From positions 704,001 through 768,000 of the forward strand of contig CM000433.1 in the NCBI GenBank assembly GCA_000165345.1: 64,000 bases of DNA, written 5' to 3'. Below the pieces are notes generated by a model. That model had not been told where the DNA came from and searched no databases. It saw only the letters and a program-made list of their open reading frames with translations. This document shows positions 1-49,108 of the stretch, piece after piece (within the stretch, counting starts at the first letter, position 1; each line of letters opens with the position of its first letter). The position numbers and the translations under genes were made by a program.

Positions 1-3000
1 TAACATTTACCAATTGATTAATTTTCTCATTATTATTAACATTATTATCAATGATTTCAATTTCACAAGTATCATTTCTATGGTTTCCTCTATTTAATAT
101 TGGAATTAATCTTTGTAAAATATCTATAGAAGCTAGATTAATTTCATCCAAAATAAGCCAGTGACCTTCTTTAATAGCTTTTAGTAAAATACCATCTAAA
201 AATTCAAAATAATGTTTTTGTCTCTCATTTTCGCTATTTAATATTCTATTATCTTTCAATTTTACCAAACATTTCTGTTTTAAATCTTTCCAATACATTT
301 TTAAAGTTAAGATATCTTCAATATTAACTGCAGTTCTTTTTTTATCCTTATTTTTTTCACAATTATTCACTTTAGAACCAATTTCCTTATTTGAATCTTC
401 TTCTTCATTAACTTTCTTACTGGTTTGATTCTTTAATATATTATCAAACTCTCCTAATAATTTATCAATAATAATAATCAAATTATTAATAAATTTTAAC
501 CATTTCCTTTCTTTCAAAAGTAATAATAAATAGTTAATAATTGTCATATTCTTCTTCCTACTAATATTACTTCTTTCTAATAATACCAAATAATCATCAT
601 AAAGTAACTTTACTTCATTGTAGATATTAATTGGTCTGTAAGATCCAATAATATCACTACTTTCACTTTGATCATTAAAGTTATATACTAATAACTCACA
701 GAATTTATCTTCTCCTTCTTCTAAATGTTCATTTATGTAATTTTTATTAGTACCATATAACATATAATGTAATTGTTGAATAATAGTAGTTTTACCAGTA
801 CCAGTATCACCAACTAATAAAATATTTTCATTATTATATATAGACATAATGATTTTAAATAATATTCTTGAATGTATACTTGTGAAGGTATAATTAAGAT
901 ATTTATAATCATCCTGATAATTTGTTTTTAGAACTAATCTAGATGAAGAAGGATCCATCGAATTTTTAAGCCCATCTCTAAGTAAATTAATATTAATATC
1001 AATATTGAGTTCTTTGTTAACAATATTAATAGTTGAAGGATTTCTGGATTGTTCTCCATTTTTAATAAAATGTATATCAAATTTTCCATTTTTAAGATAA
1101 TATTCTGATTCACTCGTATTAATTCCAAAAGATTTGGAAATTTCAATTTGACATTTGTTTCTATATTTTTTAAGTGAAATATGATCAAGTAAAACACTTG
1201 CAAAAAGTATTGAAATCTTCATTCTAAGTTTTTCATTTAAAAATGTTGAATTTTTATAATCTTTATCTTGAGAAGAAAAATATTGCTTTGAAATGCTTTC
1301 ACAACCTTTAAAAAAATCATTACATGATGGTGTTCTTATATTTAAAGATTTTGTAATATTTGTTCCAGAAAAACTATTAGGATTATTCATAAAATTTACA
1401 AGATTAGAAAAAGATTCCAATAATTCTTCTTTAATTGGAGATAAATTATTATAATTGATTTCTATTCCTTTTCTTAATTCTTTGTTTGTTGGTGTAGGAA
1501 TAGTACAAATATTCCATTTATCATTGTTTAATAATTTTAAAATATCATTATTAATATATTCACTAGGATTAATGATATTAACTTTTTCATAATTCTCATT
1601 ATTAGAATTATGTTGATGATTATTCCAAAAATTATTTTGTTTTGTATATATACAACTAGAAAATATACGGAAATTTGGATGAATTTTAATTTTTCGATTA
1701 AATTCACTTAATTCAAAATAATGAGTTTCTTGAATTCTTGATTGATTAATATTAAATCCATTAACAAGAGGATAACAAATTTTTTCAGAAATTTCATTCA
1801 ATTTAATAATAACATCTTTTGGTGAATCTTGAATGTTTTCAATAAGTAACCAATCACCATTAATAAGACATAATGATAAAATTCCATATTCCCATTTAAA
1901 TTCTCCAGGTTTATCTCCAACAATCCAATTACCAAGTAAAGATTTACTATCAATAGTATTATCAAGATATAATCTAACAATTTTAAAATGATGTTTGTGT
2001 TGAAAATAGTTTAATTTAATTTGGTTAATTAGATGAAAATAAATTTGCATTCCATTATTAATATTTTCAAGAAATATTAACGAAGTTCTTGTAAAAATAC
2101 TTGAAAGTACCAATTCTTTTAAATTATTAATTATTTCTGGATCATAAATATCCATAACTGTAATTTGATTTGTATCTTTATTTTTATTAAGTTGTTCTCG
2201 ATCATTTAAGTCTGTTTGATTTTGTATTTTTTTAATAATTTGAATATCATTATTTAAACTTTTATTCATCATATCCATTTGAGATTTACTAAAAACCAAG
2301 CTAAAAGCACTTAAATAAGGCCTTTTAAAAATAAAAAATTGTAAATATAAATCAATTTCATCATGAATAGCATATTCCTGATTAATTTGAATTGAAATAA
2401 ATAAATCTTCTACATGATTTTCACGATAAAGTTGAATTTTACCTTCTACCAATTGAACAACATTTGAATAAAGTCTTAAAAATAAATACTTGATAGTTTT
2501 ATTTAATTCTTTATAATATTGAAGATTTAACATAAATTTGTCAATAATTTCATATAGCTTATGATTTGACTTTAAATAATCTCTAATTGGAATAACTCTT
2601 TCCCATAATAAGTTCAATGTAACCAAATCTCTTACTTTATTTAAAACTTCTTCTTTATTAATTTCTTTGATTTCATGTAACTTTGTTAATAATTCAATAA
2701 TATTATCCAATAATAATGATAATTCTTTCTTTCTTTCTTGTTCTTTACACCAAAATAGAGAAAAACTGTCAACAAAATATGGTAAGTCCAATAATGAAAC
2801 AACCAAATATAAATATCTACTTACATATAATGTTTCAAGCATACCATGTTCTTTATATTCAATACCTTCTTTAAAAATATCTTCAATTAAACCAAAAATA
2901 ATTACAGGAAATCTTTCCAAAACAATATCTCCAATTTCTGAGTATAATACCATTCTTCTTAAAAGTATTGGAATTCTTGAAATTAACTCTGAATTTTGTA

Positions 3001-3163
3001 ATTGGTTACTATCCAAAGTAGATAATATTTCTTCTAATTGTTTTATTGCATCTTTTAAATTAGTTCCAAATTGATAATTATTATCTTTAATACACAACCT
3101 AATCTGATCTTCACGGAGAATAACCTCCTGTAATATTATTTTTGACCTTTCTATTAGTGACAT
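1..3163 (-). CDS. AAA+ ATPase, midasin (MDN1/Rea1)-like, N-terminal ~1054 codons; gene runs off the window start
   Basis: Uninterrupted minus-strand frame from ATG (revcomp of cat at 3161-3163; MSLIERSKIILQEVILRED...) to nt 1. It is not in the ORF track because it has no in-window stop. Walker A LLVGDTGTGKTT at nt ~785-829. Midasin-type motif YFEFLDGILLKAIKEGHWLILDEINLASID at nt ~125-200. The two listed small minus ORFs here (934..1203, 1798..1980) are in other frames. Confidence 0.6.
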   Translation of the reverse strand, partial: MSLIERSKIILQEVILREDQIRLCIKDNNYQFGTNLKDAIKQLEEILSTLDSNQLQNSELISRIPILLRRMVLYSEIGDIVLERFPVIIFGLIEDIFKEGIEYKEHGMLETLYVSRYLYLVVSLLDLPYFVDSFSLFWCKEQERKKELSLLLDNIIELLTKLHEIKEINKEEVLNKVRDLVTLNLLWERVIPIRDYLKSNHKLYEIIDKFMLNLQYYKELNKTIKYLFLRLYSNVVQLVEGKIQLYRENHVEDLFISIQINQEYAIHDEIDLYLQFFIFKRPYLSAFSLVFSKSQMDMMNKSLNNDIQIIKKIQNQTDLNDREQLNKNKDTNQITVMDIYDPEIINNLKELVLSSIFTRTSLIFLENINNGMQIYFHLINQIKLNYFQHKHHFKIVRLYLDNTIDSKSLLGNWIVGDKPGEFKWEYGILSLCLINGDWLLIENIQDSPKDVIIKLNEISEKICYPLVNGFNINQSRIQETHYFELSEFNRKIKIHPNFRIFSSCIYTKQNNFWNNHQHNSNNENYEKVNIINPSEYINNDILKLLNNDKWNICTIPTPTNKELRKGIEINYNNLSPIKEELLESFSNLVNFMNNPNSFSGTNITKSLNIRTPSCNDFFKGCESISKQYFSSQDKDYKNSTFLNEKLRMKISILFASVLLDHISLKKYRNKCQIEISKSFGINTSESEYYLKNGKFDIHFIKNGEQSRNPSTINIVNKELNIDININLLRDGLKNSMDPSSSRLVLKTNYQDDYKYLNYTFTSIHSRILFKIIMSIYNNENILLVGDTGTGKTTIIQQLHYMLYGTNKNYINEHLEEGEDKFCELLVYNFNDQSESSDIIGSYRPINIYNEVKLLYDDYLVLLERSNISRKKNMTIINYLLLLLKERKWLKFINNLIIIIDKLLGEFDNILKNQTSKKVNEEEDSNKEIGSKVNNCEKNKDKKRTAVNIEDILTLKMYWKDLKQKCLVKLKDNRILNSENERQKHYFEFLDGILLKAIKEGHWLILDEINLASIDILQRLIPILNRGNHRNDTCEIEIIDNNVNNNEKINQLVNV

Positions 3164-3424
3164 TGTTTAACTTTTTTTTTCTTCTTCTTCTTCCTCTAGC
3201 TATTTTGTTACTTCTCCACGTCTATATAACTTAGTTTACTTGGAATTATTTCGCATTTATCAACTATTTACAAAATTTCAATTATTTCTAGCTTTAAATA
3301 CTAAATAAGTACTTAATTCTTCAACTCCTTTCTTGAATTAAACTTCTTTCTCCTTCCTAAATTATCACTTATCAAACCTTGATTACCTTATTCTTTGTAA
3401 TTTTGTCATTAAATGACATATGAA

Positions 3425-3437
3425 TTGCCCGCCATTT
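3425..3437. promoter_or_regulatory. E2F-like GGCGGG-core motif (ttgcccgccattt), ~260 bp upstream of the midasin-like ATG
   Basis: Sequence ttgcccgccattt. An inverted copy aaatggcgggcaa lies at 4215-4227 upstream of the divergent 4337 gene. Similar CCCGCCAAAA/TGGCGCCA motifs recur upstream of other genes in the window. Confidence 0.35.
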
Positions 3438-3567
3438 ATTTATTATTATTTAAGAATTTTTTTCAAGGGCATGACAAAAATTAAGAATTACAAAAATACC
3501 CGCCCAATTATAACCATCATTAAGACGTGTTAATAAATTATTATTATTTTTTTAATTCAGGCCAAAA

Positions 3568-3688
3568 TTACACCGTACTGATGTGATATCTCGTACCAAT
3601 CTTTCGCCTTTTACTAAAGATTGCCGTGTCACATCAGCTTGGTAGTTATTACCAGGTCATAATATTTGGGGAGTTTCTACACTCCGAC
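3568..3688 (+). ncRNA. U5: U5 spliceosomal snRNA
   Basis: Invariant U5 loop 1 with flanking stem, AATCTTTCGCCTTTTACTAAAGATTGCCGTG, at 3597-3629. A 9-bp stem CTGATGTGA/TCACATCAG encloses it. Sm-like site AATATTTGG at 3661-3669, followed by a 3' hairpin GGAGTttctacACTCC at 3670-3685. Ends approximate by a few nt. Confidence 0.8.
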
Positions 3689-4009
3689 AACAATAAAACC
3701 AATGTATCATTTAAATTATCCCTTGAATTTAGGTTCTCTTTCTCAGCGTTCTTTCGTGTTTCTGCCGCTTGCATGCACTTGGGTACATGTGACGTTGTGC
3801 ATGCCTCCTCTCTTTGCCCACTCACTGCCAGGGATTCCTATACCGGCATTGCAAATCATCCACATGCAGCCGGGTTGTCAGGAGTGTTGACGTGTCAGGG
3901 CGCCAGCCCCCTACCTGTACATTAGCATGTATGGAGGACAAATATAACTAGGACACTAAAGGCAAGACTACTTCAAGGCTAACTACATTAAGTGATACGT
4001 TGGTTTTAT

Positions 4010-4153
4010 TGTAGCCCTAGAGGGCCCCAGAAATTGCCATTAATCTATTAGAGAATAGAATAATAGAAGTTTAAATTGGTGTAGTTTTCAACTAGCAGAA
4101 ATCGCACATCCGCTGAGCGTCATTTGTAACGATATCTCCCCTTGCGTAAGGCT
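4010..4153 (-). ncRNA. U4: U4 spliceosomal snRNA
   Basis: Minus-strand RNA AGCCUUACGCAAGGGGAGAUAUCGUUACAAAUGACGCUCAGCGGAUGUGCGAUUUCUGCUAGUUGAAAACUACACC... aligns with human U4 (AGCUUUGCGCAGUGGCAGUAUCGUAGCCAAUGAGG...GCGAUUAUUGCUAAUUGAAAACU). A 3' Sm site GGCAAUUUCUGG is followed by a terminal hairpin GGCCCucuaGGGCU. Length ~144 nt, close to the canonical 145. Confidence 0.8.
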
Positions 4154-4214
4154 AATTCTCACCTAAATGAATTTTCTCAAACTTAATTTTTAATACTACT
4201 AAATGATGGGTCTC

Positions 4215-4227
4215 AAATGGCGGGCAA
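4215..4227. promoter_or_regulatory. E2F-like motif aaatggcgggcaa, ~110 bp upstream of the 4337 ATG
   Basis: Inverted copy of the 3425-3437 motif. The two flank the divergent intergenic region that holds the snRNA genes. Confidence 0.35.
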
Positions 4228-4336: not shown

Positions 4337-5521
4337 ATGTACAAAGATGAAGAAAAAGAAAGTAAAAATAGTTATCATGGAAATGGTGAAAGCTTGAATT
4401 CTGATTCCTATATTTTAAAAAGTGACGAAATTGAAACAATAAGATCTTTAATAAAAGGAAAAAGAAAAGAATTAATTTTAGAAGAAAATGATAAAAACAA
4501 TAATCAAATAAGACCTTCAAAGATGAAAAGAAAGGAAACTCATAAAAATGATCTTAAAAATGGTTCTATTGAGGAAATAACAAAACCAAAAATACGAGAT
4601 TACTTTACATGTATGTTATTTATTACATTGAAATTTCAAGATATCTTTACAAAGAAAAATTCGGAAATTATAATTGGAGAGTTAAATTTTAATGAACTAT
4701 TTATCAAATTTTCATTAAATATCTTAACTGAGGTATATAAAAAATACTATTACAAAGCAGAAATTTCTTCTGAAAAACCTAAAATATATCCAACTTTTGA
4801 TTTTCAAGAAATTAAAAAAAATCCAAATGGACAAAAGATATATAACAATATTTGCTCTAATTCTAACTTTGATCTTATTGTTAATGATACAAATTATCAA
4901 GTAAATCAAAGAGTTGGATTACATTTAAGCTTAACAAGAAATCATCATATTAGTAAGAAATTATCAATCAAATTTTTGGAAAATATTATCAAAAAATTCA
5001 ATAATTGCCTGGATATTAATAATGAAATTCCAGAAAAAGCCTTTATATCACAAAGAATTGAAATTCAAACTAAATTAAAATCCTTTTGTATTCTTTTAGA
5101 CTATGATTCTGTTATTATTTTGAAAAATACATACCTATATTCCAAAAATACTAATATTAATGGTGGTATCTTTGTAGCAATTCAAATTCATCATTCAAGC
5201 AAAATTAATTACTTGAATCCTATTATTGAAATTATTGATCAAGCTTGTATTGATTTAGGTATACAACCACTTTATTCTGAAAGAGTTTTCCATATTTCAT
5301 TATTTTATATTAAAAAGTCTGATCTATATTTGGGAAATGCTGGCCATAATTCCAAAAGTGTAATTGAAACTTACAACTTTAAAGAATATCTTTCATCTAA
5401 ACTCATTTCTTCTTCTATTAATGATTTCTCAACCCTAACCACAAAAAATAATATCGTTTGGATTAATAAACTTGTATTCAGAGTTGGAATATATGAGTAC
5501 TATTTACTTCTTGATTCTTGA
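4337..5521 (+). CDS. Hypothetical 394-aa protein; candidate 2H phosphoesterase (Usb1/LigT-like, two H-x-S-x motifs)
   Basis: Genuine ATG ORF (MYKDEEKESK...). Two H-h-S-h tetrapeptides, GLHLSLTRN and VFHISLFYIKK, are ~120 aa apart, as in the 2H/HVSL phosphoesterase family. Otherwise no recognisable domain. Confidence 0.5.
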   Translation: MYKDEEKESKNSYHGNGESLNSDSYILKSDEIETIRSLIKGKRKELILEENDKNNNQIRPSKMKRKETHKNDLKNGSIEEITKPKIRDYFTCMLFITLKFQDIFTKKNSEIIIGELNFNELFIKFSLNILTEVYKKYYYKAEISSEKPKIYPTFDFQEIKKNPNGQKIYNNICSNSNFDLIVNDTNYQVNQRVGLHLSLTRNHHISKKLSIKFLENIIKKFNNCLDINNEIPEKAFISQRIEIQTKLKSFCILLDYDSVIILKNTYLYSKNTNINGGIFVAIQIHHSSKINYLNPIIEIIDQACIDLGIQPLYSERVFHISLFYIKKSDLYLGNAGHNSKSVIETYNFKEYLSSKLISSSINDFSTLTTKNNIVWINKLVFRVGIYEYYLLLDS

Positions 5522-5548: not shown

Positions 5549-8500
5549 CTAACTCTTTTGAGTTCTTGTTCTTGGAACAATTTGGAAAGTTACTCTAGTC
5601 TTGAAAACGACTTTCTCATCCAATTCACTTATTATACAATAAATTGTGAAAGTCTTTCTGTTCATCTGAACTAACTGTCCTCCATATGGCATCACCAAAT
5701 CTTCCCTATTATTATTATTCTTTAATAACTCCTTTGCAATCATATCTATTTCAATTCCAGTTCCACCTCCAGCTTTTCCTAAACTTCCCAAGTTATTATC
5801 AGATTCATTTGATAAATTTTTAATATTATTCAATAATTTTTTTTGAGACTTATTCATTCCCGTATTAATATCACTGCTATTACTATTATTCATCGTTTGG
5901 TTTGCTCCTTCATTCATATTAATTATAGAATTCCTAATTAAAGAAGAATGCCTCTCATCATTTTCCAAAGTACTTGAGACTCTCCTAATATATCCAATTT
6001 TGTTCTGAGTATGAGCTGGAATTGTTCCAGAAATTATACCAGTTTCTGTTGAAAATGTTAATCCAGTATATTTTGGTAATGCTGGTTTAATACACCATCT
6101 TTTGCTTACATCATCTTCAATGAATATATTATGTTGCTGATTAATTATTCCTTTAGAGCAATAGAATATTGGCTCTAAATTTACTTGATCTTGACTATAA
6201 AATGTTATACAAGGTCTTGGATCGTTAACATCTGATCTAAATTTACTTGGAAGAGAATATCCAATCTTTAATATTGGACCCTTTTCTGTAATTATTATCA
6301 GTCCATTCGGAGTACCTCCTGTTCCTCCTCCCTTGTTATAATTCTTATTCTTACTAATTATTCTTGAGCTTGATTTCTTCTCCCTTAAAACCAATATATT
6401 CTCAGAATTTGAAGAATATTGAGAATCTTCGCCTAATTCAATCTGTGACATTGATGTTTCAATATCTCCTCCCATAATATCTTCAATCCTTTCTTTCATT
6501 CTTTCTTCAATCTCTTTACTATCCTGTGAAGCTCCTGTTTGTAATCCAACAGCACCAACAATTGCTAATACTGATTGTACTGCAGTACTTAATTCATTTC
6601 TCATACCTTCAAAAGTCTTTATTGCTATACCTACAAAAATACAAAATAATAATAATGAAGCTGATGTTGCCATTATTATTAATCCTTGTCTCTCATAACT
6701 TAGTCCTACATGATCATGAACTAATTGTGGTAAGAATAATCCAAAAAGTACTTCAAATCCATCCAATAATTCCTGTAAATCTAGTGATTTATCTTGATTT
6801 AAATCCATTAAATCAAACATTCTTTTTACTTCTCTTACTGGAAGCTGAATCCTCATATTATTTAATAATTCACAAAGTAAATCAAATGATAATCCTTCTT
6901 TACTTAAAGCTGCTAATATTGAAACCATATCTCCTGGACGTATTAAACCATATCTATTACTATATTCCAAACATTTTGATGTTGCTTCAATTATTGATGA
7001 TTCTGGCTTTTCTAGATGTAAACCAATATTTAATACTACTTTAATTGCTTCTGGCCATAATCCTGTCATTAATTTTTTTGGAAGTAATCTTCTAACTGAA
7101 TCAATGTTTATTACTACTCCTTCCATTGGATCCATTCCTGTTGGATCCATTAATATTCTTAAGTGAACTGATTCTTTTAGATTATTTCTAATCTTACTCT
7201 TTCTAATATAGGATTCCATATTTTCCATGGAGTCTTCAAATTGATTCATTAAATTATTACCAATCTTTTTATCTCTCCTAAATCTTCCTCCTATAGACAT
7301 TCTTTTTGAGAATTTCTTTTTAGATGAAGAACCTAATTCACCTTCTATTTGATATCCTGGTTTAAGCTTATATTTGCTTTCACCTCCTATTTTATCTTTT
7401 TCAGCTATTCCTTCACCAAAAGCCTCATAGTGTTCAAATCCTTTATTATGAATACCAATCAATCCACCTCCTCTATTCATGAGCTGTTGTTCACTATTAT
7501 ATTCATCTCGTTCATAATCCTCATCTTCATACATATAATGTTCCTCACCTTTCCTATTTCCTCTAGCTCTTAAATACTTATTCATTCCATCTTCCAATAC
7601 ACCTCTTGAATTCATCTGTTCATCTTCTTCTGCTTCTCTTTCCATATTTTTCCCATAATCCCTATATGGTACTATAAAAGAAGTAATATTTAAAGGATCT
7701 TTTGGTAAACTTTTCCAAATTGATTCCACTCCAGAATTTGGAATTGTTATCTTAGCCAAAGCTAAAAACCTTCTTAGCATTTCATGAGTAAAATATCCTC
7801 TATAAGAATGAACATCTTGAGCATCAAAATGTTGCTTGTTTTGGTTAGTTACCTCATATAAAGACGATTTGAATGTACCACTAATCAAATTACTTCCAGA
7901 AATTGTCATTCCTACTCCTCTAAATAACCCTGTACCTCCATAAGTTGTATTATTCACACTATTTTCATTACTATTACTACCCTTATTGACATTATTATTA
8001 GTGCTATTATTAGGATTATTACAACCAACATTACTCATTCTTCTTCCACTCAAGTATTCTTCTTCTCCATTATTCTTATAAATTGGTTGAAGATAAACCA
8101 TAATAATGAAATCTCTTGCTAAAGAAGCATTAACAAATGGTCTTACAGTTCCCATATTCAAATTCAAACATAATAACAACCATAATATATAACTTTGGAG
8201 TTTATGACTTGAGAATCCCAAAGTAGTTAAAGTTGTATCAAATATATCAAATGATATGTTAAAATCTACCATCTTGTTACTACTACCTGTCATCTTCTCA
8301 AAGTAGTCATCCTGATTCTTGTTGATCATTTTCTTATTGTTACTCGTTACTCCTTCATCTTCATTTGTATCCTGTATATTATTGTTATTGAGTTGATTAA
8401 AGTTATTACTTTGTGATCTACTAAATAGCAAAAGTTTACCTTGCTCAATTTCACCCTTGTTAGATCCTTTTTGACCACCAGAACTCTTATTTACACTTTC

Positions 8501-11500
8501 TAAATATGACAGATCAGTCGTCTTATGAATATATAATCTCTTGTGATCTTTAATATACTCATGCAATTGAGATCTTCCAATAAATCCACACCTCAAAACT
8601 GCAATTTTATGGAAATCTTTAACTACATCCTCTGGTATACCTTTAACATTACTTAATAAAGTCCAGTCCAATAGCTCACCATAATTTGAAGATCTCTCTG
8701 GAATCATTTTATTCAAAAATCCATCTTCTAAAATTGTCACACCTCCTCCTAAAGTTGTTCCTGAAAATGGCAAATCACCCCTTTCTCCTCCTCCAGCTAA
8801 ACCTTGTAGGCTAAATCCTATATCGTCTAAGTTACCAATTCCAAGATCACCACCTCTACCATGTACCTTATCATTCATTGCTGTACCAAATATATTACTT
8901 TGATTACTCAAAAGAGAACCTTGTCCTCCAATAATTCCTCCATTAATTGAATTTGAAATAATATTATCAAAGTTAGTACTTTTATGTATATGAAAAACAT
9001 TAATATTTGGACCCAATCCAAGCTCACTAAGTCTTTCCAAAGGATTTCCTGATCCCATCAATAACATATTATTACTAATTAAACCCAAGAAATGCATTGA
9101 TACAAGTAAACCCGAAAAATTCAAACATCTTTCTGTCAAAGTTTGTAATGCCAAATCTGATAATTCTACAGGTAAAAATCCACTTCCATTACTCAATTTA
9201 GTGAATACACTCTTTACATGTTGAAGATTCCTTTCCTCTATATAGTTAAGATTAGTTAAACTGACAGAATTATCATAAGTTACACTTGGAAGACGATCAG
9301 TTGATAAATTGATTCCACAGAGTCGAATTAAGAATATAAAAGCGTCCATCCAAAGGTATTTGGAAACAATTACTTGAATTACTTGCTCCAAAGTTGTTTC
9401 AGAAAACTCAATAGTATTATTACTCGATGATGAATTTGTAACTCCACCTGCTCCTCCATCACCTTCTCCATTCCCTGTAGCTCCTCCACCAATCAAAATA
9501 CCATTAATTTCACTCATTTTTGAATCAACTAATGCTGAATGAAATACTTCAACACTAGTTTTTACCTCTCTTTGATGAATTATATTTGCATTATTCTTCT
9601 GGTTCTTACCTACTGAAGATATATTCTGATTACTATTAGAAAAATCTGATACTAAAACTCCTCCAGATCTAGAACTTGTAATAGAATTAGCTCTCCTCAA
9701 GACTGTTTGGATTGCTCCTAAAATAACTTTCATTCCTTGATGATTTCTTGGTAAAATAAGTACTTCTTCAGTAATTAAACTATGAGATCTTTTCCAAGGT
9801 ATATCTACAGTAAGCATATCAACATCGGTATCTTTTAATACACTTAAAGCATACAATGCTTTAGTTATCAAAGATACTTGAAATTGTAATGATGCATTTC
9901 CTTGAGATAATGATATAATTTCAAGTGTATCCTTAACATTACGTTGATTTTCGACTCTATACTCTTTTAAAGCATCAACAACTTGAGCTGCAGTTTTAGG
10001 AGGAGCTGATACAAAGTATTCATGTATAGAAAGTGAAAGCTCATTTAAAGATGGTCCATAGAAGATATTTACAATTCTTGCAGCTTTTCTTCTGATTAAT
10101 TTTGGATAAACAATATCCAAAAAGTGATCAGCTCCTTTTTTAACTCTGCTTTTATCAAATAATCTTCCAATTATATGGTTAAATAAGATCCAGATATCTT
10201 GTCTAATCTCATTGTGAAGAATTCTCATAAGCTGTAAGAACTTGGTTGTATCATTGTCAGAGTTTTTGTTTTGAGATGTCATACTCTTAATGCATGCACT
10301 ATCTCCTCCAATTCCATTATCTTTTAACCCATTTCCATTAATATTAGTTGTTGTACCTCCAATTCCTCCTCCTCCTCCTCCTGCAGGATTAGCTATCATA
10401 CTACTACTGCTTGCAGCATTTATAAAACTTGAACTTGATCCATTATTCAAGTTTGAGTTAGATTGATTTAATAACCAGGTTGAAGATGAAGTTTTGAAGT
10501 TTCTATTTGATGATCCTGTTCTTCCAATAATATTCAAATTATTTCCCTGTTTCTCAAACATACTTAAGCTTCCAGAGAATGAATATTCATCATGAAAAGT
10601 ACTATTTGAAATGATATTTCCATCATTAATAATATCTAAATCATCGTTACTTAAAGAATGAGAATTACCAAAAGTTAATACATTTCTTCTTCCAAATATA
10701 GGAATCAATAAAGCAACCTGAGCATCAAATACCTTATAAGCCAAAGAATGAATATCTCTCAAAGCTGTATCAATATCTGGAGTCCTTAAATTTCTGGTAG
10801 CAAATGTAAATATATATTTTAGCTTTTGTACATTCATCTCACGTAATAATTGAAACTTTGTATGCTTACTAGAGTTACCAACTCCTCCTCTAATATTATT
10901 ACTAATATTATTAGAACTCTTTCCTCTAATTGAAAAACCTCCAAAAGAATCCCCAACTCCTTCAAAAGTACTAGAAGATGATCTTCCATAATGATTTAAT
11001 GAACATAGCTTTAAATTATTTAAATCCCCAGTAATTACACCAATATCTGAATCATTCACAACTTTTCCAAAATGGAAATGATTACCTGTATTCTTTTTAC
11101 TATTTTCAAAACTTGAAGAAAGTAAATCTATCCATAAATAGCCTTTCTGATCTATCATAGGCTTAAATCCTGTTTTTATTGTATGGCAAGAACTAGCATT
11201 GAAAATATCCTCACTAAACTCATCATCATACTCTTCCTCATCTATTCCACCATTTTCTTGTGCTCCTTTATCATCAATAACTCCTCTATCTATTATAAAT
11301 TGATCATGAGCTTGGCTCATAATCATCTCACCTTCATTCTCACTTGTACCTCCTCTAATTGGAATAACCTTCTCATAATCAGAATCCAAATTCCCAGGAT
11401 ACAATGAATACAATATTATAATATCTTCCACAGAAAATCCTTGTTGATCATCTACATTTGTATTACAAATAGAATTAAAATAATCAATAATATCTTGGTA

Positions 11501-14500
11501 TTTGGTATTTAATCCATTAAATAAAAATCTATCATAGTGTAAGTTAATTACCCAGTATAGAAACTCTTCCCTATTCAAAAATCCATCCTCATCCATATCA
11601 AAGAAGTCAAATATGAGCTTTACTTTAGCTTCATCTGATAAAGATTCACTTGGAGGAAAGATTGGAACTTTGACTATAGCACATTTGTACCAAGTTTCAA
11701 GCTGCAAAAAATCTTCAACTTTATATCCAAACCTTGGACCATACTTAACACCATCTTGTAAAAGAGCTACATCAAATCCTTCCAATAAGCCATCAACCTT
11801 ATCATTTTCAGAAATAACATCCTTAACTGTAGCTAATTTCATTCCATAATACATTCTTAAAGTCTCTTGAACTCCAATAATCTCTCCTTTTGAATTAATC
11901 CCAAATAAGCTTTTAGGTGCAACTGGCAATATCTTCAAATATTCCCATTTGGAACAATATAATGAACAATAATCAGATATTGGAAGCTTTGACCCATAAG
12001 ATTTAATTCTTGTACTATGCTTTAACTCCATTGAACCATCCAAAAAGTCTTTGAGAGCTTGTTTATTATTAGAATTCACACCTAATGATCCCTCTATTCC
12101 ACTTTTATCCCTTGAGATTTGTTGTTTTCCTACATTATTTAATATTGCTTTTGCCCATAAGTATTTGTGATTACTAATCTCACAATGTAATTGTTCAGAA
12201 ACTGCAGCTCTAAGATCATTTGGATCAGCAGAATTTGAATTACTAGTAAATGTTTGATTTGTTGCCTCAAACCAATGTCCTAATGCAATTGAAATCAAAG
12301 ACTGGAGATTTTCAGCAATAAATCTATCAACAATTCCTCTTGAAGAACTAAAGTTATTCCATAAGCTTACTATAACAAATCCCAAAGCCAAAAGCATTAC
12401 CACATAAGGAAGTATATTGTCTGAATTAATTAAAGAACCCAATAAGAACCATAAAAGGAACATTGAAATTGCTAATAATGTTAGAAACATTGAAAATAAT
12501 GTTACAAACATTCCAATTTCTTCAAAAAGTACCAACAATTTTATCCAGTAATACCTCAAATTCCTCCTCCATCTCCAAATTAAACCTTTACCTGTTATTT
12601 CTGAATCTTCATTATTCTCCTCTTGTCTTTTATTATAAGATGAAGGTGATGAACTGGAAGCAATGAATGTAGTATGAATAATTATAAGATGTAAAACTGA
12701 TAATATCAATAAGTATGGAATAGGAAATGGTAAAGACATAAAAAAGTCCCAAGTTGGATTATATACAATATCTGAAAAATAATTTGAACTGATATGAGAA
12801 TGTGGATTTGAAATGGAAAGAGTTGATAAGTAATTATAAACCAGAGTTAGTATGATACAAGTTACTGGGAATATTGAAAGTATTGAAATTTGAAAACCAT
12901 AAATCATTATATTTAGTATTACTGGTAAAATTGAAAATTGAAAAGAATACCAAATTTCATGTATTAATTCTTGTCTTTGTTTTATTTTTGCTATATATAT
13001 TGGAACTAATATTCCTCCATAACCAATATTATATCCTGAAATCCTATCAAGTTTTTCATTATTTACCCCATTAATAATATCTGAATCAATTATTTCAGTT
13101 CCTGATTTCTGTCTTAAATTTCCTTCATCATCTAATTGAGTACTACCAAGGTGTTCAGTTTCCCCTACTTTATTCCAATTTGATATTGTTGTTAATTCAG
13201 TATACTCACAATTACTATTTCTCATAGAATGGATTGATCCATCAATAACTTGGTTATTTGAAACACTATTCTTCAAATTTCGAATTAAATTAGTAGATGA
13301 ACGTTTTAATTGAGCAATTTTTAAAGACATTAAAGCTTTAGACCATCGTTGTTTTGATTTGGATATACTTTTTCTCTCTCTATCCTTGAGTTTTTGTTGT
13401 TTGCTGCTTTCTTTTGTTGTATATATTAGACTTAAAATAGCTTTCCAACTTCTGAACTTGCTTGATCTCCAAGTAGATTTTCTTCTGAAAACTGTTGAAT
13501 AATTTGAATGAACTAATAAACCCGAAGAAATATTAATAGTTTTCGCATCTTCATTTTTTTGGATTGAATTATAATCTTCTTTATTAAAGCAAAATAAGCA
13601 TTTCAAATTTGAGGAAAAGCTACATATTGAATTAACCATTTTTGAAATGGATATACTTCTTAAAAATAGCATTATAGAATCAATTTTGAAGTAACTGACA
13701 ACCTTAATTGTTAAAGGTAAGAATATACTAGTATCCAATATAATTCCATTCTTGAGCAAAAATCTATCAGGAGAAGACGACCACCAATAAGTTGAGTAAT
13801 TTAAAGTACAATTTTCAATAATGTCGATTGATTTTCTTTGAGATTTTAAAAATATACAATTATCCAATTCTTTATCTTCACCTCTTAATATATATCTACT
13901 TCCTGTAGTTATAGCCAATGCTTTAGCACTAATCATAAACTGGCCAGGACAGTAAGTTCCTCTTTGATGAGTTTCTGTAGGAATTGGTTTTCTTATATTT
14001 TCACAAACTCTTAAACTGCTAGGTGAAACCAGGAATCCATACTTATTTAAATCATTATAAGTAACAACTTCCATTTCAAGTCCAAATGTTCTGCAAAATG
14101 TTGCGTACAATAACTCAAATTCACTCAAAGTTGTTAATCTTATGACTTTGAATGAATTAGAAACTGCTACTATTATTTGTTTATTGCCTAATGAAGATCT
14201 TCTTCCTGCTCCTGTACCTGTACCTGTTCCTGACCCTGCAAGGAAATATCCAGAATTATCATGAGTAACTGATCCCTTTGGAACAAAGATTTTTCCTTGA
14301 ATAGTTACATTGGATGGAATATCATCTTTACTTACTGCCATAACTAAATAAACATCCCTTGAAGATGATCTTTGTGAAATAAATGGTACATCGACTGACC
14401 ATGCAAAAGTACCTGTATTTGGAATTGATTTGTCTCCATGCAAAGAAGTTAAATGTGTATCTGTATAATGATCAAAAATATGTAAATGCAACTTTTTAGG

Positions 14501-17500
14501 AATGTAGCTTGAACTATCCTTCTTTAACTCCCTCCAAATCCATGTTAATTGAGTATCACTGCCATTAATAATAATCTTACCAGGGATATCATTAGTGAAT
14601 CTTGGTTTGTTTGAGTTCAAGGCTGAGTTTGAAGAATTTGGAGTCTCTTTGTTCTTTTCCAAGTTGACAGGATCATTGTTTAACGCAGCTCCTCCTGTCT
14701 TTTGTCTATTAATGATTGAATTAGCTGAATGATTATATATCAAACGACCACTATTTTCATCACTTTTTTTTTTCACCATTTCAATATCAATACTTTCTAT
14801 ATTATTTAAAGGATTTGAGTCAATAATAATTTCCTCAGAAAGGTCATGCCTTAAATATTGAACCCAAAATGATCTATCTAAAAGCATTGAAAGCTCTCCC
14901 CATTGTCCTCCCTCTACATAATATAGTTTTACTGAAATATCCACAAACTTGTTAATAGAGACAGTATCGTTTGAAATTGTATCATGAACTTGAATGATAT
15001 CATTTTCTTGAAGTTCTGAATGATAACCCATTTTTGAATGAATTCTTCTGCCATGTACAACATCATCACTATCATCGTGCATGGCTACCAAATCCCCCTC
15101 AAAACTATCCTCATTATTGCTGTCATTAACTAACGATTTCCAAGCTATTTCTATCAATTTGGAGCATTTCACATCTCCATTTGCCACGACTTGGCCACTA
15201 TCTGCCTCTTGTAACTCAAACAATATTCGCTTTTGAGATATTAAACTTTGCTCCAAATATAAGCTGCTTGTTACTGCACATGAATTATTAACTTTCTCAT
15301 CCCTTCCAAATCCCCCAATACTCAATCTACGGCTTTCCCCCTTAGAATTGTGATTTATCTTATTACGAAGAATATAAACATTATTTCCTCCTCCTAATTC
15401 TCTCCCATTCACTGTATTCACATTTTCATTATAGTTACCAAATAAGTTAATATTTTCCAAACAGCCCTCAATTCGAACCTTATCTGTATCGAATGACTTA
15501 TTCTTAAATGTATAACTCTTAAGTGAGGAAAAATCATCCTCTTCTTCTGTAATGCTGGATGCATGCAAACTGCCAAACCTTGCCGCCGAACGTCCCTCCC
15601 CAGCTCCACCTTTACTTGTATAATTCTCAGAAATCTTCCCTGCTCCTCCGCTCACTCCACTTGAAATCTCGCTTGTGACAAACTCATCCGGAAAATCTCT
15701 CACTAATCTTGCTATCAACACATACTTTTTATTCCCTCTCACCTCTGAATACCCACATTCAATACCGGAACTATAGTTTGGCGCGCGCGCCTCTCTGTTA
15801 ATGCTTTGGTTAGAGAAGGACCTTTCGAATCTTTGTTCACCATTTATGTCAGTGACTATTCCATCCATTTTGTGAGCTGAGTTGGTCATTTCTTCCCTTC
15901 CAAATACTCCCATATTGTTGCTTTCGTCATTTATTAAATTATTTTTATCGTCATCATCATTATCCTCGAACCCATAATCAAAAATGTTTTCTTGAGAAAT
16001 GCTATTACGTTTCTTCCTCTTCCCACCAAGAACATCAAAAATTATTATCTCAATATCTCTAAAATAGAACGGAATTCCGAAAGGAGAGTAGTGATCTGTG
16101 TTTTTGTTTATGAATAAATTAAGTGAGGATCTTTTCTTAGGCAAAAACCTCCTTAAGAAAAGTAGTGGGAAATCTACAAACTTCATCTTGTTTCCTGGAA
16201 TAATCTCATTACTCCAATTGCTCTGCTCAATAATATGGCCAGAAGATGATATTCTTAGAATTCTTAATCTATACTTTTGATCAGAAATTAGTTCATATGG
16301 CATTGTCACCTCAAAGATGCATTTATCATTATATTTCATTGGAACAAACAACTCTTGTTGATTTCTTCCCAAATGTGTAGTTAATGACGCCTCGTTTGCT
16401 GGAATATAAAGGAAGAATTCAGAAAGCCCTGACTCATTTGTTACTTTCTCTTCATAACTATTGCTATTATTCCCACTATATTGAGATAAGTTCTCTACCT
16501 GTTTAATATATATACAAAGCTTCTCATTATCACGCCTTTTTTGTCTCTGATTCCATCTCAATAATAATCCAAAGCTTGGCCATTGAATTGTAGAAACCAT
16601 TACAATCCATTCTGCAGCCTCTGATGTCCTAAAATCATGATTTAGACGGTGTGAAGCCGTACTTACTAGTTGCATTTCTCTAATACCTGTTAAAAACCAT
16701 GGGAAAACATAGTAATATAGTACCCACATTGCTGCTGCTGCTACCAAAATACCACATAATATATTCAAAGATAGAGAAACTATGTAACCTTGTAAGTCAT
16801 TTGCTGTTACAAGGTCTTTTAATATTGCATCATTTTCAGCTGTAAATATGTATTGTTCGATTGTCTGATATGGATTATCGGATAAGACTTGTGGATTAGA
16901 TTCAAAATCATCATCTGCTAACATAGAACTTTTTAGAATCTTCTTGGATAGTTTGCTCCAGCCTGGAATTAACCATCCTGGGAATATTATACCCTCTAAA
17001 AATGATATCATTGAGGAAAACAATTTAAATACTTTCTTTAGTTGACTTTTTAATTTCTTCATTACCCATTTTGTCGTTAAAAACAAGTTATCAAATATGC
17101 CAACCTTATTTCTTTCTCCTAATCCCAACCCTGAATTATAAGCCTTAATTTCTTCACCATCATTCTGAGTCCATACAATTACGCTTGGTTGTTGAGCTAT
17201 GCCTACGATTGCTGTATTTATTACACTAAAGATGTTTTCAGTTATTGAAGATTCACAAGCTTTAATTCTACTTGATTTCCCCATATAATTGCCTACATCA
17301 CTTATACTTTTGATATTTGCAATATCTTCATGAATATTTGAGTCCTGGTTAATGTAATAATCTTCACTTATATTTTCATCAATGTAAATTGACTCATGTA
17401 AGTTATTTGAAAGTAATCTTGGTCCATTCTTAATTCCAAATATCTTCTTCAAATCGCTTAATTTACTTTCTTGCTTATTTTTCTCACCATTAGAGGATTT

Positions 17501-19891: not shown

Positions 19892-21105
19892 TTCTTCTGT
19901 ATTTTAGTATTTTCTTGCTTTTAATTGTTTTTATACCCAAATCTTAAGTTCCCTATTTCATTTTACTTTGGTATTTAATTATATTCTTAGAGGCTCAGAG
20001 CCATTTCCTTAAAAGTATATTTGACTTTTTGGTCAAAAGATTGAAATACTCAATTTCCACTGTTTTAATCCTTTAAATAAATATTTTTATTTTAAATTGC
20101 ATGTATTCAATTTCTATTTTTAATTTATTGATTTCTCCGCTTTTTTCTCCCCTCTCATCCCCACCCCCTACATGCTTTTTTTTACGTTTGCCAAAAAAAG
20201 CTTTTTCACTAGATAAAATATAACTTTCACTATTTTTCTCCTTAATTAAATTTCACTCACTATTTTGTTTTATACTTCTAAATCCCAACTTATTACAAAA
20301 TATGAAAATAAGAATTAGATTTTTTAAAAAAACAAAAAAATGAATTTCCCCACACATATGGAAATAATTATTAAAAAATCGCAACCAATTATTCTAAATA
20401 AATTGGCAGCTGCTATGCATGCACACATTTCTAATTCAATATATACAAGCGCATGCAAATTCAGACTTACATATTAGGTAATTACAATTGACATTTCTAT
20501 AAGAAAAGATTGTATTATGAGGAAAAAAAGACTTACAATACTATGATTTCACTGCTTTATCTGACAATTTAAAAAAAATTCGAAACACAATCTATATTAT
20601 CACACATTATAATTCACCTTGTAACAATAATTAATACATTCTTTCCTATTCCCTTTTTAATTTCCCTTTCATAAATAATCTTACGTGTCCGCATGCGATA
20701 TTAAAGAGGCGGGTACGGTTTATGACATTGCATGCATCCACAAACATGCAAAATAATTAGAGAAAAAAAATTGGTGGGTTGAGTAAAAAAAAAGGGAAAA
20801 TTTTGATAATAACAAAAACAAGTAAATATTTTCTACAATCCCAAAGAGTTATCTATCGTTTTTTTTCGCACAGAATATGTAATATTAAATGAAATGTCAA
20901 TCTATTAAGATTTTGGAGTTGAATTTCAGGATTAGTATTCTCTCCACAAATCTTGAAGTAGGAGTTTTCCCATAATACAATTTGAGAATACCTGATTTCC
21001 TTTCAAGATATTAATGGAATCTTCGATATGAATACGCCTTATGGTATATAAGTAAACTGGCATCAGATTTTCTCGTTAATGAAATCTCTATTTGAATTCT
21101 ATATA

Positions 21106-24100
21106 TCAACAGAATAGACCAATTGAATCAACAAAACTGTCAATATTTTGGCTAAATAATTTATCTCCAACAGTCTCGCAAGGAAAATCTTGAACAAGAT
21201 TTGAAGGAGCTAGTATATAAGCTGAAAATGGAGACATATTGAGAAAAACTGTTTGCTTGAGAGATTTTGTATTGACAAATCTATATGGAGATTCGTGTTG
21301 GAAATTGTTTGGAAATTTATTATTAACAATAGAATTAATATTTGAAGGCTCTGAGTTAGGGCTAAAAATCTTGAATCCTTGCTCAGATTTGATAGAAGTG
21401 GAACAAAAGCTGCCCGTGATATGATATTTTTTGTCTCCTCCAAATCTCTCATCTTGTGTGTCAATTATTAGACTCTGGGGAAGTTCACTTGAAATCCCAA
21501 ATCCATAATCGTTGTAATACTTTTCGCTGAAATTGAAAACAAAAACACAATTATTTCTCTCAATTACCATAACTTTATCCAATTCGTGGCACAATACTAC
21601 ATTAATATTAGATGATGAATTATACAAACTATCAGTTGTTAAGATCTTTAATGAATCTTTTGAATGCTTACCAAGGCTTTTTGCTCTAGAATAGATGTTT
21701 TGAATAGACTTTGAGCCTTCTTTTCCATTGCTTTGGGGGGTTGAGTCCAAATAAATGACAGATTCATTATCTACTGGGCTTGTATTATCCCCTGAGCTCT
21801 CTTCCAATTTTTTAATAATTGCTTCTTTCTTCGCTAAAACCCTCTTAGAAAATGTTGAAGCTGGGGAAATCTCTGAAGGTATTAATGAAGTAGAGGTTCC
21901 TTTAGTTAAAGGTGAAATTGATTTGGAGTAACAAGCTGAAGTAAGCCCATTCTTACCTAACTCTCCCTCACTACCACATGTTAACGGTGAAAGATAATTA
22001 TAATTGACTCCATAATCCTGAATGTTATTCTTGGCTATCCAGCTTAAAAATTTCTCAAGACGAATCAATAGAGTATTAAAGAATTCTAAATGCTTGAATT
22101 TCAAGTTCTTGTTATCTGCCAAATCCCATTTACAACACATTTTGCTATTATCCATGTTATTATTTGGTCTAGGAAGATCAAAAGAATCAGGATTTCCAAA
22201 TTCGGAGCCCATACTTTGAAAGACACCATTTTTTGCGAAAGCCATGGTTGTTAATATAAGTAGCTTTAACTGTTTAAGAGCAAAAACCGACTTGTCAAAA
22301 CCGTCAAATACCATCATATGATGATGAAGAGCATTTTCTCCAAAGGCTTGAAGAATGATGGGTGAATTTGGCTTAAGTATTAAGCTTGGAGTAACATCCA
22401 AAACATTGCACTGTTCAAAATACAAGAAACTAGTTGCTCGTGCAATTGAGTCCCATGAAAATGAATAAGCTGCTTTTACTCTACCTCTGGACCCCATCCA
22501 TCTAGAATGATCAAAGTTTTTCAATATCTCACAGCAACCCCAAGCAATGCTATCCTTACATGGCTCAACCAAGTACCCATCTACGTTCGGAGTTAAGAAA
22601 TCCCTTGGGCCGCCACTAGTAGTAGCAACAACAGGCTTTCCAGCTGTCCATCCTTCCAATACAACAATTCCAAATGGTTCATTTCTTGATGGTACTACTA
22701 CTGCGTCACAAGCCTTGTAAAGTCTGATTACATCATCTCCTGATTTCTTTCCAACAAATCTGATGGAATTGTAAATACCTAACTGATGAGATCTACGCAC
22801 AATCTCATCTTTTTGGTGTCCATCTCCAACTATGATAAATTTCGTATCATTACGATATTTCAAAATGCCAGGTACTGCTTCAATAAGTAAGTCAACTCCT
22901 TTTTGGAGAGCCATTCTTGCAACGCAAAGAAATGTTGGTTCCAAAGGTCCTATGCCGTATTGCCTTTTAACTTCGCCAGCATCATCCATTGCTACACTAT
23001 CAAAGGTCTTGCAATTAATTCCATTAAAAATTACTTTAATTTTGTTTCTATTTATTCCAAATAGTCTACATACTTCCTCTGCAAACACTCCACTTACACA
23101 AATTAGTCGGTCTGCAGTATGGGAGCCTTCTCTCTCTATATCAGAAATTCTACCGCTCTGTCCTCCATATGACTGATTTCCACATCTGCCGTATTCAGTA
23201 GAATGCAATGTTAGGATAGTAGTCCTATTATTATTTCCAATTCTTCTTAAACTTGTTAATACAGGAGCAGCTAACCAATCATGGCAATGACAAATATTGA
23301 ATCGATACCCATTCTTTACATTATTAAGCATTGGATGATCAGGTACCTTTGTTAGCCCATCTTCCCATCTCTGCATATAATATACAAACGAATTACACAT
23401 ATTTATAATTTCAGTAACAAAATCAGAATTCAACTGGAAAGGGCATTCATGGTATAATACTCCATCGTGAACTTTGATTATATATGCTGATGTAGTTGCC
23501 CTTGTGAATAGATGAACCTCGTGGCCAAGTCTTACAAGGCTTGCAGACAACTGTGAAACATGAGGTGAAACCCCACCAACTGAGTGAGTATAAAGACTTT
23601 CCCAACTGAACATTGCAATTCTGAGAGGATTCTGTGTCACCGTCTTCATCTCCAGAGATTCTATCCCATATAAGTTTCTGGAAACAAACTCAACTGTATG
23701 CAAATCAGATTCTCCCATATCCGAGTAACTATTATTATTGCCATTATCATTATCTCCTCTACTGGATATGTTTTGCTTCTCTCTGTTTTTGTATAAAATC
23801 CGAATCTTCTTATTGGAATTCCTCATTTTATCCTCATGGGGAAGCAACTCGTCAATTATATCTTTTTTAATATTTAAACTGGATGGGCTTTTAAGGATGA
23901 TGTCTTGCAAGGAGCTACAAATTGAAGTATTCCAAATATAGTCAAAGCCCATACCTCCATATTCCAAAGGTACTGCAAGCTCTGAACAAGCCTTGTCTTT
24001 GTTTTCTCTTAAGAGAAGCTCATTTGCTATTGTAATAGCAAATGGCTTAATTGTGTGGATTGTATCATTAATCAAAGCCAACACTGAGGAGATATAGGAG

Positions 24101-31026: not shown

Positions 31027-31098
31027 TCCGAGTTAGTATAGTGGTTAGTATATCCGCCTGTCACGCGGATGACCCGGGTTCAATTCCCGGACTTGGAG
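31027..31098 (+). tRNA. tRNA-Asp: tRNA-Asp (anticodon GTC)
   Basis: TCCGAGTTAGTATAGTGGTTAGTATATCCGCCTGTCACGCGGATGACCCGGGTTCAATTCCCGGACTTGGAG. The 7-bp acceptor stem, D arm, anticodon stem TCCGC/GCGGA with loop CTGTCAC (anticodon GTC) and T arm CCGGG-TTCAATT-CCCGG all fold canonically. 72 nt. Confidence 0.9.
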
Positions 31099-31099
31099 C

Positions 31100-34085: not shown

Positions 34086-34098
34086 TTTCCCGCCAAAA
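34086..34098. promoter_or_regulatory. E2F-like motif tttcccgccaaaa, ~190 bp upstream of the histone H2B ATG
   Basis: Direct sequence. Its position in front of a replication-type histone gene is consistent with E2F-type cell-cycle control. Confidence 0.4.
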
Positions 34099-37780: not shown

Positions 37781-37805
37781 TTCCCGCCATGTGGCGCCAT
37801 GTGGG
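37781..37805. promoter_or_regulatory. Tandem E2F-like motifs ttcccgccatgtggcgccatgtggg in the divergent kinase/ACS promoter
   Basis: CCCGCC and GGCGCC cores ~190 bp upstream of the kinase-gene ATG (minus). A GCATGCA motif follows at ~37835. Confidence 0.4.
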
Positions 37806-38296: not shown

Positions 38297-38310
38297 TTTC
38301 CCGCCAAAAC
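38297..38310. promoter_or_regulatory. E2F-like motif tttcccgccaaaac, ~500 bp upstream of the acyl-CoA synthetase ATG
   Basis: Direct sequence; same motif family as at 34086. Confidence 0.35.
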
Positions 38311-48981: not shown

Positions 48982-49054
48982 GCCCCCTTAGCTTAGTTGG
49001 TAGAGCATTCGCTTAGTAAGCGAAAGGTCCCGGGTTCGATTCCCGTAGGTGGCT
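48982..49054 (+). tRNA. tRNA-Thr: tRNA-Thr (anticodon AGT)
   Basis: GCCCCCTTAGCTTAGTTGGTAGAGCATTCGCTTAGTAAGCGAAAGGTCCCGGGTTCGATTCCCGTAGGTGGCT. D arm GCTTAGTTGGTAGAGC; anticodon stem TTCGC/GCGAA with loop TTAGTAA (AGT); T loop TTCGATT. One mismatch in the acceptor stem and one in the T stem by my fold. T5 run 3 nt downstream. Confidence 0.8.
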
Positions 49055-49108
49055 CTCTTTTTACTGCGCACAAAAAAACATTTTTATTTCATGTTATTGA
49101 ATATGAAG

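Follow-up and report, generated by a model that had tools for sequence, protein, structure and literature searches.

Convergent U5 and U4 small nuclear RNA genes of Cryptosporidium parvum and the conserved elements that flank them

A 64-kb stretch of Cryptosporidium parvum DNA (hereafter the window, with positions counted from its first nucleotide) contains a U5 and a U4 small nuclear RNA (snRNA) gene that point toward each other. U5 is on the plus strand and U4 is on the minus strand, with their 3' ends facing, inside an intergenic spacer of 1173 bp that runs from 3163 (minus-strand gene) to 4337 (plus-strand gene). An earlier reading of the sequence (the original prediction) had placed convergent U5 and U4 genes in a 1.2-kb spacer between a midasin-like gene and the gene at 4337, and we confirmed the convergent pair together with both flanking genes. 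The two genes belong to the U5 and U4 families, they are conserved in the genus with compensatory changes in their stems, and they share elements in their flanks (Table 1). Taken as a whole, the locus is very probably best explained as the single-copy U5 and U4 genes of C. parvum with external promoters, a 3' box, and a shared, mutagenic termination zone.

The snRNA genes themselves are a matter of routine annotation and were already known. Li, Baptista, Mei and Kissinger (2022) found with Rfam one copy each of U1, U2, U4, U5, and U6 in C. parvum, and small-RNA sequencing of sporozoites recovered all 55 Rfam benchmark genes, U5 and U4 among them (PMC9465071). Because both genes had been catalogued there, their identification is not new. 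The arrangement of the snRNA genes, their promoters and their 3' flanks are not mentioned in that paper (PMC9465071). The flanking architecture, which consists of a bipartite promoter, a 3' box, genus-wide convergent pairing beside USB1 and a fast-evolving GC-rich spacer, appears to be undescribed, and we infer its function from sequence comparison.

Identity and conservation of the two genes

Rfam covariance models were run on the entire window at their curated gathering thresholds, and four matches reached threshold: U4, U5, and two tRNAs. A search with the U5 (RF00020) and U4 (RF00015) models had been proposed as a check of the original prediction, and both models matched over their full length and far above their thresholds. 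Chance is excluded for both genes because of their E-values for the 64-kb window (2e-20 and 1e-9) and their recovery in 10/10 orthologous loci. Of the boundaries given earlier, the end at 4153 was exact, but the start at 3568 lies 2 nt before the start of the U5 model.

U5 had been recognized by its invariant loop 1, its Sm site and its 3' hairpin, and each of these is present. An A breaks the U run of the U5 Sm site (AAUAUUUGG), and this odd form is kept across the genus, C. ryanae having AUUGUUUGG. For U4, the predicted core was GCGAUU-UUGCUA-UUGAAAACU. GCGAUU and UUGAAAACU were found as described, but UUGCUA is CUGCUA in the sequence, one mismatch. The Sm site and the hairpin predicted at the 3' end of U4 are also there. 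The 5' stem-loop (kink-turn), the central UUGAAAACU region, the Sm site and the 3' hairpin of U4 all aligned to RF00015 with high posterior probability. These results support the reading of the two genes as U5 and U4 snRNA genes.

The reverse complement of U4 nucleotides 1-16 (CCCCUUGCGUAAGGCU) aligns to the U6 consensus segment CCCCUGCGCAAGGAU; U6 itself is outside the window. A weak, sub-threshold Rfam match to U6 (16.6 bits) was seen at 4104-4186 on the plus strand, overlapping the 5' end of U4 in antisense. We rejected it as a gene, since U4 nucleotides 1-16 are complementary to the universal U6 stem II segment and the match reflects this U4/U6 complementarity.

Orthologous loci were fetched from C. 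meleagridis, Cryptosporidium chipmunk genotype I, C. ubiquitum, C. ryanae, and C. hominis, from three C. canis assemblies (two lineages) and from two species in Logan assemblies. A USB1 profile search for more distant species made no additions, and a midasin search with the same aim added C. hominis and C. ryanae only. The order midasin, U5 (forward), U4 (reverse), USB1 is kept in ten Cryptosporidium species or isolates, and the 3' ends of U5 and U4 are 244-400 nt apart. Rfam scores for U4 and U5 were 62-96 bits in 11 sources; across the ten orthologous loci they were 62.5-69.5 bits for U5 (RF00020) and 84-96 bits for U4 (RF00015). Identity to C. parvum is 84-99% for U5 and 86-100% for U4; for the spacer between them it is only 50-68%, C. 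hominis excepted. The U4 core and the two Sm sites do not vary across the ten, nor does loop 1, which reads GCCUUUUAC in 10/10 sequences. In C. ryanae, the pairing of U5 stem I is retained through compensatory changes from AU to GC, and one compensatory pair of the same kind is found in the 3' stem-loop of U4. Further changes in the C. ryanae U4 (AGCCCUACGCAAGGAG) would be expected to covary with its U6. The invariant elements, the compensated stems and the diverging flanks indicate that U5 and U4 are functional genes under structural constraint.

The GC content of the locus is 27-31% in the group of C. parvum, C. meleagridis, and C. ubiquitum versus 51-54% in C. canis and the species of SRR31860986, and the snRNAs have 40-44% GC in every species, whatever that of the locus. 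In a metagenome scan, 48 contigs of unrelated marine protists contained a 32-nt stem-loop I sequence of U5 identical to that of Cryptosporidium. In many of these contigs, a box with the sequence CCCGC or CCCGT precedes U5 by ~60-70 nt. Two of them (L016 and L030) contain two tandem U5 copies each, and another (L052) has an upstream sequence element (USE) of the plant type, TCCCACATCG.

Table 1. Features of the U5-U4 locus. Negative numbers are positions relative to the respective snRNA gene.
Feature	Position	Strand	Remarks
Midasin (MDN1/Rea1-like) gene, 5' part	1-3163	-	Start codon at 3163, translation open; divergent neighbour of U5
Distal elements upstream of U5	3404-3437	+	Palindrome TGTCATTAAATGACA (3404-3418), E2F-like box TTGCCCGCCATTT (3425-3437)
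U5 proximal promoter	3497-3531	+	Conserved in 10/10 species, also in the GC-rich ones, with unchanged distance
U5 GC box	~-73 to -64	+	ACCCGCCCAA
U5 CCATCA-type box	~-58 to -50	+	AACCATCAT
U5 third promoter element	~-46 to -39	+	GACGTGTT
U5 snRNA gene	3570-3686	+	RF00020, 69.5 bits (gathering score 40), model positions 1-117 of 117
U5 loop 1	3606-3614	+	GCCUUUUAC, capping stem-loop I
U5 Sm-type site	3661-3669	+	AAUAUUUGG
U5 3' hairpin	3670-3685	+	Directly after the Sm-type site
U5 3' box	3690-3714	+	Core AAACCAATGTATC at 3696-3708, AATAAA-like hexamer before the core
GC-rich hypervariable spacer core	3718-3931 (214 nt)		GC peak, divergence; probable shared termination zone
Conserved words in the core	3771 and 3799; 3842; 3899		GCATGC; ACCGG; GGCGCC
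Further conserved words in the core	3858-3866; ~3889		TCCACATGC; GACGTGTCA
U4 3' trailer	3932-3987	-	Conserved among C. parvum, C. hominis, and C. meleagridis
U4 3' box	3988-4012	-	Core AAACCAACGTATC at 3994-4006
U4 3' terminal hairpin	4014-4025	-	Read from the sequence
U4 Sm site	4027-4035	-	AAUUUCUGG, invariant
U4 snRNA gene	4014-4153	-	RF00015, 95.9 bits (gathering score 46), model positions 1-138 of 138
U4 proximal promoter	4202-4227	-	TTGCCCGCCATTT (-74 to -62) and GACCCATCAT (~-59 to -50)
USB1-like gene	4337-5521	+	U6 snRNA 3' phosphodiesterase, HVSL family; divergent neighbour of U4

Promoter elements and the 3' box

Two boxes at fixed positions are common to U4 and U5: CCCGCC, which is E2F-like, at ~-72, and A(C/A)CCATCA at ~-55. 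The upstream boxes in their full span are ACCCGCCCAATTATAACCATCATTAAGACGTGTT for U5 (~-73 to -39) and TTGCCCGCCATTTGAGACCCATCATTTAGTAGTATT for U4 (~-74 to -40). Sequence and position of the U4 promoter are kept in 9/10 species, the GC box being degenerate in C. ryanae. In 139 kb of Cryptosporidium DNA, the combination CCGCC...CCATC occurs upstream of the two snRNA genes only. Since the boxes are retained in species with a locus of 51-54% GC, base composition does not account for them. GGCGGG, the complement of CCCGCC, has been described as an E2F-like motif that is over-represented in C. parvum promoters (PMC3734150). Farther upstream of U5 (~135-165 nt from the gene and ~240-275 nt from the midasin start) are a palindrome and another E2F-like box, which matches the one in the U4 promoter at 13/13 positions. 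Both of these distal elements are conserved in most species, and they may serve the U5 promoter, the midasin promoter, or both.

The plant snRNA USE is TCCCACATCG, and the corresponding element of Dictyostelium (DUSE) is (A/T)CCCA(C/T)AA. Similar to these systems, Cryptosporidium has a CCCA-type box ~55-70 nt upstream and an A/T-rich stretch at ~-30. Unlike the plant USE and the DUSE, the A(C/A)CCATCA box of Cryptosporidium is paired with the E2F-like CCCGCC. Each gene would be transcribed from an external snRNA-type promoter made of these two boxes and the A/T-rich stretch.

Read in its own orientation, each gene is followed by ATAAAAC(C/T)AA(T/C)GTATC..TTAA, which starts 6-10 nt past the terminal hairpin. 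The core of this 3' box, AAAC(C/T)AA(T/C)GTATC, was found in 20/20 U4 and U5 flanks of the ten species, and the hexamer before the box varies (AATAAA, AGTAAA, TATAAA, AATGAA and similar). In the 139 kb, 22/22 matches to the pattern are at snRNA 3' flanks of two gene types, U4 and U5, and there is none elsewhere. We also considered the 3' box as a general motif of the window and rejected this, as there were only the two snRNA-flank matches and one match at chance level.

In C. parvum, the two boxes form a 25-nt inverted repeat, 92% complementary, at the outermost ends of the U5-U4 spacer. When the two copies were compared within each species, there were 48 differences; 21 of them break pairing on both strands, 16 pair on the plus strand only and 11 on the minus strand only. 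No compensatory evolution of the two arms was found in this comparison. The near-invariant core together with the lack of compensation favors a sequence-specific signal, with complementarity as a by-product of convergence. We read the 3' box as a lineage-specific snRNA 3'-end signal. The polymerase would run beyond the mature 3' end into the box, with the form (A/T)ATAAAAC(C/T)AA(T/C)GTATC, and the box would direct 3'-end cleavage or processing, like the 3' box of metazoan and plant snRNAs. The metazoan (Integrator-dependent) and plant 3' boxes are likewise short elements a few nucleotides past the 3' end that are common to different RNA polymerase II (Pol II) snRNA genes. However, the Cryptosporidium box is unrelated to them in sequence, its core standing after an AAUAAA-like hexamer.

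No match was obtained when a metagenome collection without Cryptosporidium was scanned for U2 with the box behind it; in this collection the control, the U5 32-mer, found the 48 marine-protist contigs. The Cryptosporidium 3' box is absent from 48/48 of these contigs. Since these 48 U5 genes lack it, the box is not shared by eukaryotes in general. Nrd1/Nab3-like motifs (GUAG, UCUUG), visible past the boxes in C. parvum, were rejected as candidates; by eye they are not conserved in the GC-rich species.

The spacer between U5 and U4

Between C. parvum and C. hominis, 44/327 spacer positions differ, and 43 of these differences are within the 214-nt core (20%). The last 82 nt of the spacer, on the U4 side, contain one difference. 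At four-fold degenerate sites of the flanking genes, the two species differ at 6/272 positions (2.2%), which is significantly less than in the spacer (13-20%; Fisher P = 2e-7), and the adjoining promoter DNA is 3-4% different. The core has evolved ~6-9 times faster than four-fold degenerate sites. Two C. canis lineages differ at 22.2% of spacer positions versus 9.4% of four-fold sites (P = 4e-6), and C. ubiquitum and the related species of SRR18693150 differ at 42.7% versus 28.9% (P = 0.009). Transitions and transversions in the spacer number 36:8. Thornlow et al. (2018) reported that the transcribed flanks of active tRNA genes hypermutate 7-10-fold with an excess of transitions (PMC6130373). 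As at those tRNA genes, conserved small RNA genes stand here beside unconstrained flanks, presumed to be transcribed, that diverge several-fold faster with a transition excess. Unlike the tRNA genes, the snRNA genes are presumably transcribed by Pol II, only their downstream side is accelerated, the accelerated stretch is ~200 nt long, and it is GC-rich.

The core is the sole 200-nt stretch of the window with a GC fraction of at least 0.48. Its GC peak over 100 nt is 60%, compared with 50-52% at tRNA genes and at most 47% in all other non-coding segments. The two tRNA genes, tRNA-Asp (GTC) at 31027-31099 and tRNA-Thr (AGT) at 48982-49055, both on the plus strand, are the only other non-coding GC peaks in the window. 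In all species the spacer has 42-56% GC, with locus GC ranging from 27% to 54%. The words GCATGC, GGCGCC/GCGCGC (E2F-like), ACCGG, TCCACATGC, and GACGTGTCA persist between species in variable order, and in most species TCCACATGC lies roughly halfway between the two transcription starts. Moreover, the strand downstream of each box, in sense orientation, is pyrimidine-rich in 19/20 cases. An open reading frame at 3626-3925 was rejected as protein-coding: it starts within U5, it has no Pfam match, and indels are found throughout it between species.

We suggest that the spacer core is probably a shared termination zone under transcription-associated mutagenesis. Transcription of both genes would end in this common spacer of ~270 nt. 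Because the spacer would be transcribed often and from both sides and is mostly free of sequence constraint, it would accumulate transition-rich substitutions at several times the rate of silent sites, with a GC-rich composition and a few transcription-factor-like words kept despite the turnover. Mutagenesis in a termination zone would account for the rate and the spectrum of change, but not for the GC-richness that is kept.

Several points weigh against this interpretation of the flanks. Transcription-associated mutagenesis is usually C-to-T, and therefore mutagenesis alone leaves a spacer of 42-56% GC in genomes of 27-31% GC unexplained. Among the polarised spacer changes, 21 go from G or C to A or T versus 12 in the opposite direction. 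The four-fold sites used for comparison may not be strictly neutral. As for the 3' box, neither the metazoan consensus GTTTN0-3AAARNNAGA nor the plant consensus CAN4-9AGTNNAA was found in sense orientation in the U4 and U5 flanks. Furthermore, convergence makes the two boxes necessarily complementary, so that a stem function is possible, with a lower probability than a signal. The GC-richness may result from selection on composition (polymerase pausing or nucleosome positioning), from a GC-rich enhancer or roadblock of factor sites, or from biased gene conversion. Going further, and tentatively, the 3' box and, after it, a composition-constrained GC- and pyrimidine-rich zone might together form a lineage-specific Pol II termination system of Cryptosporidium snRNA genes, whose terminator, shared head-to-head by U4 and U5, would retain the convergent pairing of the genes and at the same time be a mutational hotspot.

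The complementarity of the two 25-nt boxes invites another explanation, in which they act as an RNA stem. A read-through transcript of either gene would fold the spacer into a hairpin with a closing stem of 14-25 bp, a double-strand-specific nuclease (RNase III/Rnt1-like) would cut it, both 3' ends would be formed, and the polymerase would be halted before the opposite gene, which would explain why convergence has been kept. The 92% complementary arms and the convergent pairing in all ten species fit such a stem, and so do the chipmunk genotype, whose two arms carry an identical A-to-G change (AATGAAA), and the fold z of the full spacer, -4.7 on the plus strand and -3.7 on the minus strand, which is wholly due to the arms. 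In yeast, Rnt1 (RNase III) cleaves stem-loops past U1, U2, U4, and U5, which resemble the present case as potential double-stranded 3' extensions of precursors. However, the Cryptosporidium stem would join the flanks of two convergent genes, and the way the boxes have evolved speaks more for a sequence signal. Across the genus, the core of the box hardly varies and does not covary, whereas a pure stem would allow far more change, and the arm differences either break pairing on both strands (21/48) or show no strand preference. In addition, the same downstream signal at two convergent genes automatically gives complementarity. We consider the stem unlikely. A more serious competitor, although still not the one we favor, is that the GC-rich core is a cis-regulatory module of GCATGC, GGCGCC/GCGCGC, ACGTGT, and CCACATGC sites. 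It might work as a downstream enhancer of both snRNA genes (perhaps also of midasin and USB1) or as a roadblock that ends the converging polymerases. The conserved words vary in order, number and orientation, as in typical clusters of binding sites. The site of the ApiAP2 protein cgd2_3490 is GCATGC, and GGCGGG/GGCGCC are E2F-like motifs of C. parvum (PMC3734150). The window contains 18 copies of GCATGC versus 3.7 expected, a five-fold over-representation, ACGTGT is also present at -45 in the U5 promoter, and CCACAT is near the midpoint of the two transcription starts in most species. On the other hand, in ordinary promoter regions of the window that are richer in GCATGC, GC does not exceed 41% over 100 nt, and binding-site turnover predicts no evolution faster than at silent sites. 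With its predicted sites, such a module is compatible with our explanation of the genes and differs from it on the role of the spacer alone.

It is very improbable that the core encodes a third non-coding RNA, for example the telomerase RNA or the RNase MRP RNA of Cryptosporidium. In GC content the core exceeds every other non-coding stretch of the window, tRNA genes included, it stays at 42-56% GC independently of the genome, and RNAs of these kinds evolve fast and escape Rfam. Neither an MRP nor a telomerase RNA is among the Rfam-detected RNAs of C. parvum (PMC9465071). However, when the arms (30-nt ends) were removed, the fold z was -1.3 to +2.9 on both strands in the ten species, with no excess stability, and a structured RNA in the spacer was rejected. 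The core has no Rfam match up to E = 10 and no snRNA-type promoter lies within the spacer. A telomerase RNA was rejected too, as matches resembling a (CCTAAA)n template are only 6-9 nt long and conserved in neither sequence, position nor strand. Evolution faster than at silent sites and an alignment full of indels also argue against a third RNA. The possibility that one or both snRNA genes are pseudogenes or decayed copies can practically be dismissed. Nothing specific speaks for it except the A within the U run of the U5 Sm site, and this unusual site is itself conserved. The models match at full length far over threshold, the genes are 84-100% conserved with compensatory changes while their flanks diverge, and they are the sole genomic copies and are expressed (PMC9465071).

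The promoter and the candidate 3'-end signal make up a compact, genus-wide set of apicomplexan snRNA elements that could help to locate further small RNA genes transcribed by Pol II. They could also serve in cassettes for small-RNA or guide-RNA expression in Cryptosporidium genetics. The 214-nt core is a possible high-resolution typing marker, because C. parvum and C. hominis differ in it by ~20% (silent sites ~2%) and it lies between invariant priming sites in U5 and U4. Finally, the spacer may be a clean protist example of a mutational hotspot beside highly transcribed RNA genes.

Neighbouring genes and other features of the window

The gene that diverges from U5 had been called midasin-like, which agrees with its orthologues; these are 6122-6507 amino acids long and contain AAA_5, AAA_lid_5, and AAA_lid_7 domains. 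The product of the gene on the other side, which diverges from U4, matches Pfam PF09749 at 29 bits (cut-off 26.8) and has 100% identity with a protein of C. parvum Iowa II. Its two catalytic HxS/T motifs, H196-L-S-L-T and H319-I-S-L, are invariant in eight orthologues, and the C. meleagridis orthologue carries the NCBI name U6 snRNA phosphodiesterase Usb1. U4 and the USB1-like gene share a divergent promoter region of 183 bp, and USB1 trims the 3' end of U6, the pairing partner of U4.

Downstream of the USB1-like gene, the minus strand contains an unbroken open reading frame of 4780 amino acids (5549-19891). Its position is conserved genus-wide, and its orthologues have faint EF-hand matches only. 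A cluster of GCATGC sites and a CCCGCC box are found upstream of this giant reading frame at 19904-21108. Canonical E2F sites are also present elsewhere in the window, with TTTCCCGCCAAAA at ~34086 (34086-34098) and ~38297 (38297-38309) and CCCGCCATGTGGCGCCATG at 37783-37800.

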